Sequence record: MK373786.1
DNA: 64,000 bases
DNA from: Escherichia phage vB_EcoM_R5505
Reading direction: 5' to 3' (one strand)
Of this stretch, positions 42,872 through 48,334 are shown in pieces; position 1 is the first letter of the stretch; every line of letters begins with the position of its first letter. The position numbers were made by a program, and so were the translations under genes. A model generated the notes under the pieces. That model ran no database searches. It was not told where the DNA came from and saw nothing but the letters and a program-made list of their open reading frames with translations.

Positions 42872-45136
42872 TCATAATTTACAGGATGAACAATCTTCAG
42901 CTTTTGGAGTTTCTATTTCATAATCATCAGTACCAGAACCATCACGGGTATTATGATAATAGAAATTTTTTCCGCCAAAATACCAGAAATACAAAAGGTC
43001 ATCAATCATTATTGACATTGGAACCTTGCCTTTAGGGAAGATTTGGGGGTCATAGTATGTATTCGCTGAAGCTGATTGACAAACCCATTTCAGCATAATA
43101 GCTACCTGCGTAAGATAAGGTTTATTACCTTTCTTAGCTAATTTCCATGTATAATCATAGAGGTCTATGTTATGCTCAATATTGGGCACGACTTGATTAA
43201 AGGAGCCCTCTTTTGATTCTTTAACAGAGACTGGTCCACGTGGAGGCTCGATACCGTTTGTACTGTTAGAAACTTGGGAAGATGACTCACATGGCATAAG
43301 TGCTGATAATGTGCTATTACGGATGCCAAAGAGCTTAAGGTCTTCCCGCAGCGACGACCAGTCACAAACGTATTTTGGAGCTGCGATTTGGTCAATCTTT
43401 TTATTGTACCAGTCGATAGGTAATTCGCCTCGAGACCAACGAGTGTCTGAATAATATTCGCAAGGTCCTTTTTCTTTGGCGAGCTTAATGGATGCTTTAA
43501 TGAGTCCATACTGTAATCTCTCAAATAGTTCATGTGTTAAATCGTTAGCATCTTCATAAGAAGCAAAGTTACTTGCCAGCCAAGCTGCATAGTTGGTAAC
43601 ACCTACACCGAGGTTACGACGCTTTTTAGCTTTTTCTGCTTCAGGAACTGGATATCCTTGATAATCCAAAAGATTATCAAGAGCACGAACTTGAACTTCT
43701 GCCAATTCATTAATTTTATCTTGGTCTTGCCAGTCAAAATTATCTAGTACGAATGCAGAGAGAGTACACAATCCAATTTCAGCATCAGGACTGTTCACAT
43801 CATTTGTTGGAATAGCAATTTCACAGCACAAGTTACTCTGACGAATAGGTGCCTTTTCACGAATAAACGGAGTATAGTTATTCGTATTATCAATGAACTG
43901 CACATAAATCCTTGCTGTTCCTGAACGTTCAGTCATGAGCAATTCAAATAGTTCACGAGCTTTAATACGCTTTTTGCGAATATTAGGGTCTTTTTCTGCT
44001 GCTTCGTATAATTCACGGAAACGGTCTTGGTCTTTAAAATAAGAATAATAAAGCTCGCCACCCATTTCATGCGGGCTGAACAAAGTAATGTAATCATTCT
44101 TTCCGAATCGTTCCATCATCAAATCATTCAGCTGAACACCATAATCCATATGACGAATGCGGTTTTCTTCTACGCCTTTGTTATTTTTCAAAACGAGAAG
44201 ATTTTCAACTTCCAAATGCCAAATAGGATAATAAGCAGTAGCAGCGCCGCCACGAATTCCACCCTGTGAACATGATTTAACAGCAGTCTGAAAATGTTTC
44301 CAAAAAGGAATAACACCGGTATGGCGTACTTCACCCATGCCAATCTTAGAACCTTCGGCACGAATCATACCAACGTTAATACCAATTCCAGCGCGTTTAG
44401 AGATATATTCAACAATTGAAGCAGAAGCCTTATTGATAGACTTCAGCGAATCACCTGCCTCAATAACAACACATGAACTAAACTGTCGAGTCGGAGTACG
44501 GCAACCAGCCATAATAGGAGTTGGCAATGAAATCTGTCGAGTAGATACTGCTTCATAAAAACGGATAACATGTTTTAGTCTATCAACAGGTTCATCTTGA
44601 TGCAATGCCATTCCAATAGCCATAAATGCAAACTGCGGAGTTTCATAAATTTGACCAGTGGTTTTATCTTTAACTAGATATTTTTCTTTTAATTGCATCG
44701 CCCCGGAATAAGTAAATTCCATATCCCGCTCGTGCTTAATTTTTGATTCTAAAAATGTAATTTCTTCTGCTGAATATTTTGACAATAATTCAGGGTCATA
44801 TTTACCTGCATTTACACAATAAGAAATATGGTCAATAAATGAACGTGGTTCATACTGCCCATAAACATGCTTACGAAGAGCAAACATTAAACAGCGTGCA
44901 GCTACATATTGATAATCAGGCTCTTCAACCGAAATAGAATTCGCAGCAGCCTTAATGACAATAGTCTGAATATCATCAGTTGTCATTCCATCACGGAGAT
45001 AAGATTTAATGTTTTCATATAATTCATAAGGATCTACTGATGTTCCTTCAGCTGCCCAAGATAAAACTTTAATAATTTTTTGCGGGTCAAAGCTCTGAGA
45101 AACACCACTACTTTTGATAACATTAATTAATTGCAT
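42872..45136 (-). CDS. nrdA: Ribonucleotide reductase large subunit
   Basis: 754 aa as T4 NrdA; only 51 bp separate it from nrdB. Confidence 0.95.
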   Translation of the reverse strand: MQLINVIKSSGVSQSFDPQKIIKVLSWAAEGTSVDPYELYENIKSYLRDGMTTDDIQTIVIKAAANSISVEEPDYQYVAARCLMFALRKHVYGQYEPRSFIDHISYCVNAGKYDPELLSKYSAEEITFLESKIKHERDMEFTYSGAMQLKEKYLVKDKTTGQIYETPQFAFMAIGMALHQDEPVDRLKHVIRFYEAVSTRQISLPTPIMAGCRTPTRQFSSCVVIEAGDSLKSINKASASIVEYISKRAGIGINVGMIRAEGSKIGMGEVRHTGVIPFWKHFQTAVKSCSQGGIRGGAATAYYPIWHLEVENLLVLKNNKGVEENRIRHMDYGVQLNDLMMERFGKNDYITLFSPHEMGGELYYSYFKDQDRFRELYEAAEKDPNIRKKRIKARELFELLMTERSGTARIYVQFIDNTNNYTPFIREKAPIRQSNLCCEIAIPTNDVNSPDAEIGLCTLSAFVLDNFDWQDQDKINELAEVQVRALDNLLDYQGYPVPEAEKAKKRRNLGVGVTNYAAWLASNFASYEDANDLTHELFERLQYGLIKASIKLAKEKGPCEYYSDTRWSRGELPIDWYNKKIDQIAAPKYVCDWSSLREDLKLFGIRNSTLSALMPCESSSQVSNSTNGIEPPRGPVSVKESKEGSFNQVVPNIEHNIDLYDYTWKLAKKGNKPYLTQVAIMLKWVCQSASANTYYDPQIFPKGKVPMSIMIDDLLYFWYFGGKNFYYHNTRDGSGTDDYEIETPKAEDCSSCKL

Positions 45137-45453
45137 AAGTCCTCAACTTGAAAATCGTCTTTAAACAATCGGTTAACTATATGAGCTATTATATCACCAT
45201 GACACGGCTTTGGTTTACATGTGCATCCTAGCCTCATTCCACGTAAAGGCTCTAAATGTGCTTTAGTTATTTCTCCGGATTTAATTCGACGTATAAAATC
45301 TTTTTTGAATAATTCAATGGCAGCCTCCCGGCTGCCAGCATCTTTACCGACGTAATTTCCCCAAAATGTACCGCGGTGAATATTAACATCAAAGTCGGAT
45401 TTGTATTTATTCACTACCCGGCATAGACGGCCCACGCTGGAATAATTCGTCAT
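45127..45453 (-). CDS. Hypothetical protein (nrdA.1 position)
   Basis: 108-aa ORF; CxC...C...H segment. Confidence 0.55.
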
Positions 45454-45670
45454 ATTGTTTTTCCGTTAAAACAGTAATATCGTAGTAACAGTCAGAAGAA
45501 GTTTTAACTGTGGAAATTTTATTATCAAAATACTCACGAGTCATTTTATGAGTATAATATTTTTTACCATAAATGATAATAGGCTGTTCTGGTCCTGGAA
45601 CTTCTAACTCGCTTGGGTTAGGAAGTGTAAAAAGAACAACGCCAGAAGTATCTTTAAATCGTAAAATCAT
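45407..45670 (-). CDS. Hypothetical protein (nrdA.2 position)
   Basis: 87-aa ORF; ATGA overlap with the td stop. Confidence 0.55.
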
Positions 45671-46527
45671 ATTGCCATTTTCCCTTTAATTGCTGGATGC
45701 GATTCATAATTTTCAAGGATAAAATCTTTCGGTTTCATGTATTCAGTTAACCAGTAAAGCTGTGTTTCGGTGTCACAATTTCCAAACTCTATAGGCCAAT
45801 CAATTTTAAGTTCACACAGTTCTTTAGGCTCACGACGTAAAATTTCTTTACATTGCTCAGTATGATTCATATAGATGTGAGTATTACCACCAGAAAATAT
45901 CAAATCTCCTGGGATAAGATTACACATCTTAGCCACAATATGCGTCAAGGCAGCGTACGAGGCAATGTTGAATGGCAAGCCCAAGAAAACATCTACACTT
46001 CTTTGGTACCATTGTAAATCAAGATAACCATTACGCACATTAAACTGATAGAACATATGACAGGGCGGTAATGCCATTTGATTGATTTCAGCTGGATTCC
46101 ATGCTGAAACGATTTGACGTCGATCAGTTGGTAATTTTTTAATACGATCAATAGTTTCAACTAATTGATCCACACCACCGAAATCACGCCATTGTTTACC
46201 GTATATAGGACCAAGTTCACCACTATGATATCCTAGGTCTTTAGCCTGGTTTTCATAGTTATCGTCCCAAATAGTTTTACCTTGAATAAGACTACCATGA
46301 GTGCGAAGACGTAAATCATTAACATTGGTAGAACCGGAAATAAACCATAGAAGCTCAGCAATGCATGCATTCCAGGCGAGCTTCTTAGTTGTTACTGCAG
46401 GAAAACCTTTAGTTAAATCCCAGCGTAATTTAGTACCGAACAAAGCAATTGTTCCTGTGCCTGTTCGGTCATCGGTTTCATAACCATTTTCAAAAATGTC
46501 TTTAATTAAATCTTGGTATTGTTTCAT
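45667..46527 (-). CDS. td: Thymidylate synthase (uninterrupted)
   Basis: 286 aa as T4 TS; active-site PPCH; single contiguous ORF. Confidence 0.95.
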
Positions 46528-46571
46528 TTAGTACCTTATATAAATTATAATACATTTTATGAAGCTAATAA

Positions 46572-46931
46572 TTAATACGGTTTAGCATCAAATTTTCTCT
46601 CAATTTCAGGCGTGAAATATAATTCTTTACCGCGTTTGGAAAAGCGACCAATAATATGATAATTATTCTCATCAAACGTGATATTACCAATATCCATAGC
46701 TTTCAACCAAATATCGATATTTCTATCCAGCTTTATGTCAAAATTCCAATACGGAGAACTATTACCGAAAATACTGCAAGCGGATTCAGTGAAACAACTG
46801 CTATAAATCTTGTCTTTAGGAACTACTAATTGATAGACACCTTTAATAAACTGAGGACCCTGCCACTTTGGCTGTTTCGCGTCTTTTTCTAATAGAATAG
46901 GGTAATAATTAAAATTCATATTTTCCGCCAC
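46572..46931 (-). CDS. Hypothetical protein inserted between frd and td
   Basis: 119-aa ORF with no recognisable motif, in an interval where T4 frd and td are remembered as overlapping. Confidence 0.6.
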   Translation of the reverse strand: MAENMNFNYYPILLEKDAKQPKWQGPQFIKGVYQLVVPKDKIYSSCFTESACSIFGNSSPYWNFDIKLDRNIDIWLKAMDIGNITFDENNYHIIGRFSKRGKELYFTPEIERKFDAKPY

Positions 46932-46939
46932 GCGTTATT

Positions 46940-47760
<821 letters not shown>

Positions 47761-47769
47761 TATATTTCC

Positions 47770-48012
47770 TCAAATAGACTTTTTCACAATTTTCCAATCG
47801 GCTTTAAACTGCTCGACGTCAGAATGGTAAATCCAGAATCCTGCGCTTTCTCCGTCTTCATAAAGAGGACATCCATCACATTCATCTTCCCACCCCATAT
47901 CACGTAAAAGGTGTTCAGCTTTTTCAACAAGCTCAGAATCTTTACCGATGATATTAAAATACCATTTACCTCTAACTTCTGAATCTTTAATGCTCTGACG
48001 TTGTAATCTCAT
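47770..48012 (-). CDS. Hypothetical protein
   Basis: ORF 47770..48105; ATG at 48012 (MRLQRQSIKD...) follows a strong GAGGAG RBS; the upstream part of the ORF covers a promoter element. Confidence 0.55.
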   Translation of the reverse strand: MRLQRQSIKDSEVRGKWYFNIIGKDSELVEKAEHLLRDMGWEDECDGCPLYEDGESAGFWIYHSDVEQFKADWKIVKKSI

Positions 48013-48035
48013 TTTATTCTCCTCATGTAGTTGAT

Positions 48036-48071
48036 AGGGTAATAGTATCACACTACTACCCTGTTGTAAAC
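48036..48071 (-). promoter_or_regulatory. Early promoter with -10 inside a stem-loop
   Basis: 6-bp inverted repeat agggta/taccct around the minus-strand TACTAT; GTTTAC at 48066-48071. Confidence 0.5.
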
Positions 48072-48079
48072 AATTATTT

Positions 48080-48334
48080 TTAAATTTTATCGAGCCACTT
48101 ACCAAGCTTAATCATTTCTTTAGTAGCCTTTTCCATACTTCTGAACTTAACCAATAGAGGATAGGTATCGACACCCATAACTAAACTGGTTACAAGACTG
48201 TGTTCACCCACAAGCCATAACGAATACGTTTGAATATCGAGCCCGTAATTTCTGTCTTTATGGACCCGTACACCCATCACTTCAAATTTCTCACTAGCTT
48301 TTTCTACCGCATCCAGGAAATCATCTTTAGTCAT
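48080..48334 (-). CDS. Hypothetical protein
   Basis: ORF 48080..48376; ATG at 48334 (MTKDDF...) avoids overlap with the upstream ORF and follows AAGG. Confidence 0.5.
   Translation of the reverse strand: MTKDDFLDAVEKASEKFEVMGVRVHKDRNYGLDIQTYSLWLVGEHSLVTSLVMGVDTYPLLVKFRSMEKATKEMIKLGKWLDKI

Follow-up and report, generated by a model that had tools for sequence, protein, structure and literature searches.

The systems closest to the locus described here are the MotA/AsiA middle promoters of phage T4, the regulatory cassettes of T4-type genomes and the morons of lambdoid phages. The T4 MotA box has the consensus (a/t)(a/t)(a/t)TGCTTtA and lies 12 ± 1 bp from a TAtaaT -10 element (PMC2988021). 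One of the mapped T4 middle promoters, Ptd, has its start site at 145142, inside the 3' end of frd (Hinton review, Table 1, PMC2988021). PeSL and PmSL regulatory cassettes mediate insertions and deletions (indels) in T4-type genomes (Arbiol 2010, PMC2839356; Comeau 2014, PMC4122927). This work concerns a small open reading frame (ORF A) located between frd, encoding dihydrofolate reductase (DHFR), and td, encoding thymidylate synthase, in Escherichia phage vB_EcoM_R5505 (MK373786.1). The DNA analyzed is a stretch of 64,000 nt, hereafter called the window, and coordinates are window positions.

A preliminary description of this stretch had noted that frd and td overlap in T4 and are separated here by about 410 bp with a 119-aa ORF lacking a recognizable motif. 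This layout is accurate: the T4 genes overlap by ATGA, the gap in the window measures 412 bp (46939..46528) with ORF A as the sole long ORF inside, T4 lacks the ORF, and an alignment with T4 places exactly 416 bp extra at the junction. The same description proposed the ORF as a self-contained gene, a candidate for a moron-type accessory function, whose insertion appeared to have brought or recreated a promoter for td. We find that ORF A belongs among the ordinary conserved hypothetical genes rather than being a cassette of recent insertion. It is already catalogued (RB32ORF229c, phrog_1928) and represents no new kind of element. New here are the membership of both slot genes, A and B, in phrog_1928, the association of this family with the frd-td slot across 11 named genera, and its location downstream of Ptd.

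The window represents a Tequatrovirus, and its frd-ORF-td segment is 100% identical to that of Escherichia phage vB_EcoM_KAW1E185 and 95-99% identical to that of hundreds of other Tequatrovirus records. The ORF A protein matches the phrog_1928 profile with E 9.5e-36 (hmmscan), residues 8-115 aligning with positions 2-125 of the 126 in the profile. T6, which also has a td intron, carries the identical ORF directly after frd under the label RB32ORF229c. The protein is 99-100% identical in T2, T6, RB3, RB14 and RB51, and the whole segment is found in 352 of 518 matching T-even records. A tblastn search with the protein returned 580 phage records, 362 at ≥ 90% identity (including T2, RB3, RB14, RB33, RB51 and PST) and 218 below 60%; among the matches listed, frd or td adjoins the homologue wherever the annotation is readable. 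Within the 64-kb window itself, no paralogue was found. Annotation of the gene is uneven. The T2 record LC348380.1 leaves the intact 119-codon ORF (1201-1557) unannotated and calls td (1606-2466) a ‘hypothetical protein’. Elsewhere ORF A is labeled ‘putative homing endonuclease’, ‘putative glucose-1-phosphate adenylyltransferase’ or ‘putative dihydrofolate reductase’, the first two of which are without support.

Eleven named genera carry members of phrog_1928 between frd and td. Synteny was inspected in the Kanagawa-, Jiaoda-, Gelderland-, Marfa-, Moon-, Winkler-, Kagamiyama-, Teguna- and Bragaviruses, in MHG19 and in two uncultured relatives, and the placement directly after frd and before td holds for the window and for all 20 of the 20 inspected related loci that bear a family member. 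The order frd-A-B-C-td is found in CIP9 (Kanagawavirus), R3_1 (Marfavirus) and the uncultured relative L018 (63% identical), and frd-A-B-td in CGG4-1 (Gelderlandvirus), Moon (Moonvirus), CHI14 (Winklervirus) and EcS1 (Kagamiyamavirus). The second uncultured relative, L017 (66% identical), shows frd-A-B on a contig that ends before td. Mineola (Jiaodavirus), phiR1-RT (Tegunavirus) and MHG19 have one copy, and Proteus phage PM2 (Bragavirus) has two tandem copies. The A (~105-113 aa) and B (~115-124 aa) proteins are tandem paralogues: they align with each other in blastp down to E 1e-12, both match phrog_1928 (8.6e-36 for B-type CIP9, 2.7e-29 for A-type Mineola) and they have the motifs QKKW, HGxY and GRFxKxGxxxxF in common. 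The C gene (68 aa, phrog_9550), which sometimes follows A-B, is unrelated to them. Overlaps of 4-23 nt among the slot genes and with frd or td, which commonly signal translational coupling, occur in most of the opened loci. In PM2, a 194-aa ‘hypothetical protein’ upstream of the tandem copies (locus L020, 1285-1869) resembles an unannotated dihydrofolate reductase, judging from its translation (GLPW motif) and its location between gene 32 and td.

Synonymous and nonsynonymous changes and ω were obtained with the Nei-Gojobori method, using the window ORF A as reference. The comparison with T2 yields 13 synonymous and 0 nonsynonymous changes (ω 0), that with Killian 16 and 2 (ω 0.023) and that with PHB12 30 and 9 (ω 0.044), while ω reaches 0.13 against L017. 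Among T-evens dN/dS ranges from 0 to 0.15, and the constraint is tighter than on frd, with ω of 0.09-0.28 in the same comparisons. Purifying selection on ORF A is strong, and it is a real protein-coding gene. A chance ORF or a dead gene without function would fit the fact that T4 and Mosigvirus manage without it and that the T2 GenBank record passes over it. Against this stand the purely synonymous divergence from T2, ω values of 0.02-0.15 for other relatives, the motifs conserved across 70 diverse homologues and a confident predicted fold; codon-level conservation refutes the idea, and we give it practically no credence. ORF A is 66, 63 and 45% identical to its homologues in L017, L018 and CIP9, and Frd 49% identical against the same relatives. 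This similar divergence indicates that ORF A diverged along with its neighbors. Its G+C content (33.6%, versus 36.2% for the window) is normal for the genome. Together, synteny and selection show that ORF A is functional and has been conserved vertically as part of the frd-td module of T4-like (Straboviridae) phages of Enterobacterales.

Three alleles are found at the junction in T-even and RB69-like phages. They have a common frd end (...GTATATAAATGA) and td start (ATGAAACAATACC) and meet at the conserved junction ...TATAAATGA. The A-type allele (this window, T2, T6), present in ~350-360 T-even records, is the majority allele in Tequatrovirus. The C-type allele (IME537, PYps11T) occurs in ~135 records at ≥ 90% identity, and the empty allele (T4, HY03) in ~30 Tequatrovirus records, a figure reached by subtraction rather than direct count. 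In an evenly spaced sample of 60 records, the Tequatroviruses comprised 32 A-type, 10 C-type and 4 empty junctions. Mosigvirus APCEc01 has an empty junction as well, its sequence TATAAATGAAACAATACC being identical to that of T4 and HY03. About 150 further RB69-like records match td only, and those listed show no frd-td gene, which, with APCEc01 as the one inspected, suggests that they resemble APCEc01 in having an empty slot. PHB12, filed under Mosigvirus, bears the A allele.

The C gene is positioned at 458-664 in loci L009 and L010 (IME537 and PYps11T), at 3188-3394 in L002 and at 3148-3354 in L005. The T-even C ORF starts with MSNKLKV..., is named ‘flagellar biosynthesis protein’ in some records and shares 79% identity with the gene that directly precedes td in Klebsiella phage R3_1. 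More distant homologues (~43% identity) are present in unrelated Phapecoctavirus genomes.

The td intron was found in all four empty-junction Tequatroviruses sampled (T4T, vB_EcoM_112, HY03 and JEP6) and, in the 60-record sample, in ~9 of 32 A-type and 4 of 10 C-type records. The association between empty junction and intron could reflect co-conversion during I-TevI homing, or merely common ancestry. A rule tying the absence of the ORF to the td intron or to I-TevI homing was rejected: ORF and intron occur together in T6, G8 and SHFML-11, the window has the ORF alone, and T4 has the intron without the ORF. In T4 and T6 td is split by the I-TevI intron, whereas the window td is uninterrupted.

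Expression of the slot can be read from T4. The T4 Ptd start site lies 30 nt upstream of the T4 td ATG. Its homologue in the window consists of the MotA box aaTGGTTGA (47004..46998), 12 nt, the -10 element TAAAAT (46985..46980) and N6-A, with a predicted start at ~46973, 42 nt ahead of the ORF A GTG. The window and T4 do not differ at any position from the MotA box through the start site, and all three allele types (A, C and empty) conserve this stretch. Because Ptd lies inside frd, any gene that follows frd is promoter-proximal on the td middle transcript, here ORF A with td behind it. Extrapolating from the T4 mapping, Ptd is presumably active in this phage, and transcripts starting at Ptd, plus read-through from frd, would express ORF A along with td during the middle (prereplicative) period. 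Translation would start at GTG 46931 or at an alternative in-frame ATG at 46919, the latter giving 115 aa. ORF A was found to have neither a sigma-70 promoter nor a terminator of its own. The 8-20 nt that separate frd from the ORF hold no site of sigma-70 or MotA type either, which leaves Ptd as the closest promoter. Mosigvirus APCEc01, with a frd/td junction identical to T4, has its own consensus-like MotA box in the frd 3' end (TGCTTCA-N11-TAGAAT, locus L023 ~790-815), which differs from T4 Ptd in position and sequence.

The 44-bp spacer before td does carry the elements reported in the preliminary description, aGCTTCA (46566..46560), 10 nt and TATAAT plus AAGG, and they are conserved in T-evens. 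The box reads tTAGCTTCA (GCTTCA at 46565..46560) and is followed after 10 nt by TATAAT (46549..46544) or after 12 nt by the weaker TAATTT (46547..46542); the Shine-Dalgarno sequence AAGG (46537..46534) stands 6 nt before the td ATG. The conserved block of 31 bp (46568..46538) exists as a single copy in the window, even with 3 mismatches allowed. It is invariant in T2, T6, RB33, Killian and PhiZZ6 and entirely absent from PHB12. Only 1 of 45 columns varies in the spacer, versus 27 of 119 third codon positions in ORF A, with P ~1e-4 if the spacer evolved like synonymous sites, which implies that it is constrained. The pattern GCTTNA-N10-13-TATAAT occurs six times on the minus strand (54629, 50295, 46565, 36192, 30602 and 16999) and not once on the plus strand, compared with 0.17 occurrences per strand in shuffles, which marks it as a genuine signal class of this genome. 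These six sites, one of which (50295) lies ~240-265 nt upstream of gene 32, are consistent with MotA-type middle promoters of leftward prereplicative units.

The spacer site itself stands apart within this class. Its box differs from the MotA consensus in two places, including an A for T before GCTT, its 10-nt spacing to TATAAT compares with 12-13 nt at the other five sites, and its predicted start 8-10 nt before the td ATG would put the Shine-Dalgarno sequence at the extreme 5' end, compared with a leader of 30 nt from Ptd. We therefore regard an active promoter in the spacer as doubtful; constraint as part of an AU-rich td ribosome-binding region is at least as likely. The block may thus serve mainly as td translation-initiation region, and perhaps additionally as a weak MotA-type promoter. 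No RNA structure was detected in or after the spacer (z 0.34), and Rfam gave no match.

Copies of a 9-bp direct repeat, TAAATGAAA, stand at both ends of the 416 bp that T4 lacks (Table 1), and the similarity between them extends to 11 of 12 nt. Alleles with and without the gene can consequently interconvert by recombination. At the frd stop, the two-codon mini-ORF ATGAAATAA resembles the td start ATGAAACAA except that a C has become a T, and 3 nt separate its end from the ORF A GTG. Compared with the T4/HY03/Mosigvirus junction, it looks like a relic of a td start. When the two proteins are aligned (MVKNVNFNYY versus VAENMNFNYY), this GTG falls on the ATG that starts the L017 homologue, and in L017, L018 and CIP9 the frd reading frame continues into the start of A. 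Two histories can be envisaged. Deletion between the TAAATGAAA repeats may have removed the gene from an A-type ancestor and so created the junction seen in T4. Alternatively, a single illegitimate crossover between an empty-junction genome (just after the first td codons) and a frd-A-td genome may have produced the A allele and left the relic behind. For the Tequatrovirus A allele, the empty junction common to two genera and the relic would favor the crossover. These two observations weaken the reading that T4 simply deleted ORF A.

These features bear on the proposal that a self-contained moron was recently dropped into a T4-like frd-td overlap, bringing or recreating a td middle promoter. 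An insertion-type event retains some basis in the repeat scar and the relic td start at the frd stop, in the empty junction common to T4, HY03 and Mosigvirus, on which the A-type may have been built by one illegitimate crossover, and in the conserved MotA-like spacer block. However, the slot is filled by homologues in 11 named genera with a divergence similar to Frd, and by the majority allele in Tequatrovirus. The gene does not stand by itself either, having no upstream promoter or downstream terminator of its own and a G+C content typical of the genome, and overlapping frd and td in other genera; neither its signals nor its distribution, which is neither patchy nor foreign, are those of a moron-type accessory cassette. 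As to a promoter brought along, Ptd already serves td and is kept inside frd, now upstream of the ORF, and the spacer motif has a spacing of 10 nt instead of 12 ± 1 (PMC2988021), a leader of 8-10 nt and no counterpart in PHB12. At most, the gene derived from the homologous slot of a related phage and not from outside, as the family-wide synteny indicates. We consider a recent moron quite improbable. The preliminary description had itself named conservation at this position with a known function, or unconstrained codon evolution, as evidence to the contrary. The position is indeed conserved across T4-like phages; the family has no known function, and the codons are strongly constrained.

Coordinates of the remaining features are collected in Table 1. 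Two more small ORFs lie on the minus strand upstream of frd, at 47518..47760 (80 aa) and 47770..48105 (111 aa). They match T6 RB32ORF231c and RB51ORF237 in position and length (the equivalence rests on position) and are absent from T4, where frd.1 comes 71 bp after frd. With both lacking, T4 appears streamlined on both sides of frd. The window td is a different allele from td of T2, RB33 and Killian (86% aa identity, dS ~1.1), unlike frd and ORF A, which are close to the versions in these phages (dS ~0.2); PhiZZ6 has the same td allele as the window. Pairwise differences rise from 1-2 to 12-19 per 50 nt at ~155 nt into td, pointing to a recombination breakpoint there, near 46370.

Table 1. Features of the frd-td region in the window of phage vB_EcoM_R5505
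Feature	Coordinates	Strand	Description	Basis
nrdA	45136..42872	minus		
nrdA.1	45453..45127	minus		
nrdA.2	45670..45407	minus		
td	46527..45667	minus	Thymidylate synthase, 286 aa, intron-less; downstream neighbor of ORF A	
Right copy of TAAATGAAA	46530..46522	minus	Covers td start codon 46527..46525	Window-T4 alignment
Spacer ORF A-td	46571..46528	minus	44 bp, 16% G+C; TTATTAGCTTCATAAAATGTATTATAATTTATATAAGGTACTAA, then td ATG	
ORF A	46931..46572	minus	119 aa from GTG 46931; stop TAA 46574..46572	
Mini-ORF ATGAAATAA	46943..46935	minus	Two codons; ATG overlapping frd stop (ATGA)	Sequence, junction comparison
Left copy of TAAATGAAA	46946..46938	minus		Window-T4 alignment
Ptd homologue	47004..46973	minus	Inside frd 3' end	Identity to T4
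frd	47521..46940	minus	Dihydrofolate reductase, 193 aa; upstream neighbor of ORF A	

The structure of the ORF A protein was predicted with AlphaFold2 from a 70-sequence alignment (pLDDT 89.8, pTM 0.82). The predicted elements are β-strands at residues 10-16, 31-38 and 66-68, a helix at 72-81 and β-strands at 84-86, 90-100 and 103-108. In both runs of the structure search, OB-fold nucleic-acid binders (HIN, Teb1, Cdc13, RPA, SSB, PriB, S1) made up most of the leading matches, none of them significant. Foldseek against viral models returned solely uncharacterized proteins of T4-like phages, including phages of Pectobacterium, Serratia, Erwinia and Aeromonas. Residues W23, G31, Y33, G95, F97, K99, G101 and F106 are invariant or ≥ 90% conserved in the 70 sequences, and R96 is conserved in 74%. 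The family motifs QKKW, (H/K)GxY and GRFxKxGxxxxF (a hairpin) are all present in ORF A. Glycine, aromatic and basic residues make up most of the conserved positions, the median pI of A-type members is 8.6, and no catalytic-looking constellation of residues is conserved among family members. With low certainty, the 13-kDa product may be pictured as a non-enzymatic, mildly basic binder with an OB-like β-barrel (β1-β2-β3-helix-β4-β5). Its ligand, tentatively, would most likely be single-stranded nucleic acid or else a partner protein involved in the metabolism of nucleotides or DNA.

Several records, some from the BASEL collection (MZ501066, MZ501113, MZ501089 and OR271596), annotate the ORF as a homing endonuclease, and a degenerate mobile element, with the ORF as remnant or free-standing module of such an enzyme, would agree with the polymorphic locus and with the td homing intron in some relatives. 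None of 27 family members, however, matches a GIY-YIG, HNH, LAGLIDADG or PD-(D/E)XK profile. With 105-124 aa the proteins are too small, and the residues they keep invariant (W, G, Y, R, F and K) include no catalytic acids or histidines. The ORF is also distributed independently of the td intron (T6 and G8 with both, the window with the ORF, T4 with the intron) and, unlike a decaying remnant, it is under strong purifying selection. Missing nuclease profiles, residue pattern and selection essentially refute this origin, which we rate as very improbable.

Taken as a whole, the explanation we prefer, with moderate confidence, is a conserved gene of the frd-td slot that is co-expressed from Ptd and whose product may be an OB-like binder. 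The product would improve fitness in nature yet be dispensable under some conditions, since the gene has repeatedly been lost naturally, as in T4. Several observations weigh against this explanation. Searches of Pfam (E up to 10), NCBIfam, PADLOC and PDB sequences gave no match for the protein. An exhaustive profile search of 1.84 billion representatives retrieved 51 proteins, 47 of which are stand-alone (95-148 aa). Repeated natural loss makes a core role in thymidylate synthesis less likely. Since T4-like phages keep the same gene order all through their early regions, adjacency to frd and td is no proof of a functional link. Finally, the relic td start, along with the empty junction TATAAATGAAACAATACC that T4 and Mosigvirus have in common, would suggest gain on an empty junction. 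In the profile search, all source-named members among the 47 came from T4-like phages of Enterobacterales, and the four long matches (345-995 aa) were repeat proteins judged spurious. A single-sequence, k-mer-indexed protein search gave 3 relatives only, so that profiles were needed. Literature searches for RB32ORF229c or for frd-td intergenic ORFs yielded nothing relevant.

The stronger form of the preferred explanation is that the A and B proteins are an overlooked, orphan-fold component of the phage thymidylate module, which would have escaped study solely through its loss from T4, the model phage; they might, for instance, be OB-like adaptors linking DHFR and thymidylate synthase with DNA or with the machinery of replication and dNTP synthesis. 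We judge this form improbable. A less improbable alternative, though still an unlikely one, is a host-directed effector: a small prereplicative protein that neutralizes a host factor or defense, with the slot reflecting nothing but inherited gene order. Several T4 ORFs named for neighboring metabolic genes proved to be counter-defense factors. The presence/absence polymorphism in close relatives (A-type, C-type, empty), the expansion into tandem paralogues, the fast divergence between genera (25-45% identity), the confinement of the family to phages and its natural dispensability in T4 would all suit such a role. On the other side, very strong purifying selection and retention in phages of Escherichia, Klebsiella, Salmonella, Serratia, Yersinia and Proteus indicate a conserved target, and the genes are tightly coupled in translation to frd and td in most genera. 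The protein has no similarity to any known protein, the libraries searched holding defense rather than anti-defense proteins.

For the conserved slot gene, the practical consequence is a correction: the frd/td overlap of T4 is atypical of its genus, since T2, T6 and most Tequatroviruses have a constrained 13-kDa protein there, and related genera have one or two paralogues in the slot, translationally coupled to DHFR and thymidylate synthase. Having no homologue of known function and no significant structural neighbor, the family is a reasonable, non-urgent target for functional work. The locus also offers a clean natural case of three interchangeable alleles (A, C and empty) at one junction, downstream of a mapped middle promoter. 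Current phage biology would remain unchanged unless the protein acts on thymidylate synthesis or host defense.

Compared with the systems introduced at the outset, ORF A is the same gene at the same position as RB32ORF229c of phrog_1928, a family without assigned function or fold. The likeness to OB-fold binders (RPA, SSB, PriB, Cdc13, Teb1, S1, HIN) consists of predicted-fold matches, none of them significant. With the T4 MotA/AsiA middle promoters (Ptd, P32) the relation is direct, the window frd stretch being identical to mapped T4 Ptd. The spacer block resembles them in its MotA-box-like tTAGCTTCA, its perfect TATAAT and its membership in a pattern class confined to the transcribed strand, and differs in the A for T before GCTT, the 10-nt spacing and the 8-10 nt leader. 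As in the PeSL/PmSL cassettes, a promoter-like element adjoins a gene-sized indel that varies between close relatives; here, however, stem-loop and terminator are both missing, the window contains the block once and the indel ends are a 9-bp coding-junction repeat. As in the lambdoid morons, an extra gene stands between genes that are adjacent, here even overlapping, in well-known relatives (T4, HY03 and Mosigvirus), but ORF A lacks both a promoter and a terminator of its own, shows no compositional contrast and has an ancient, syntenic distribution.

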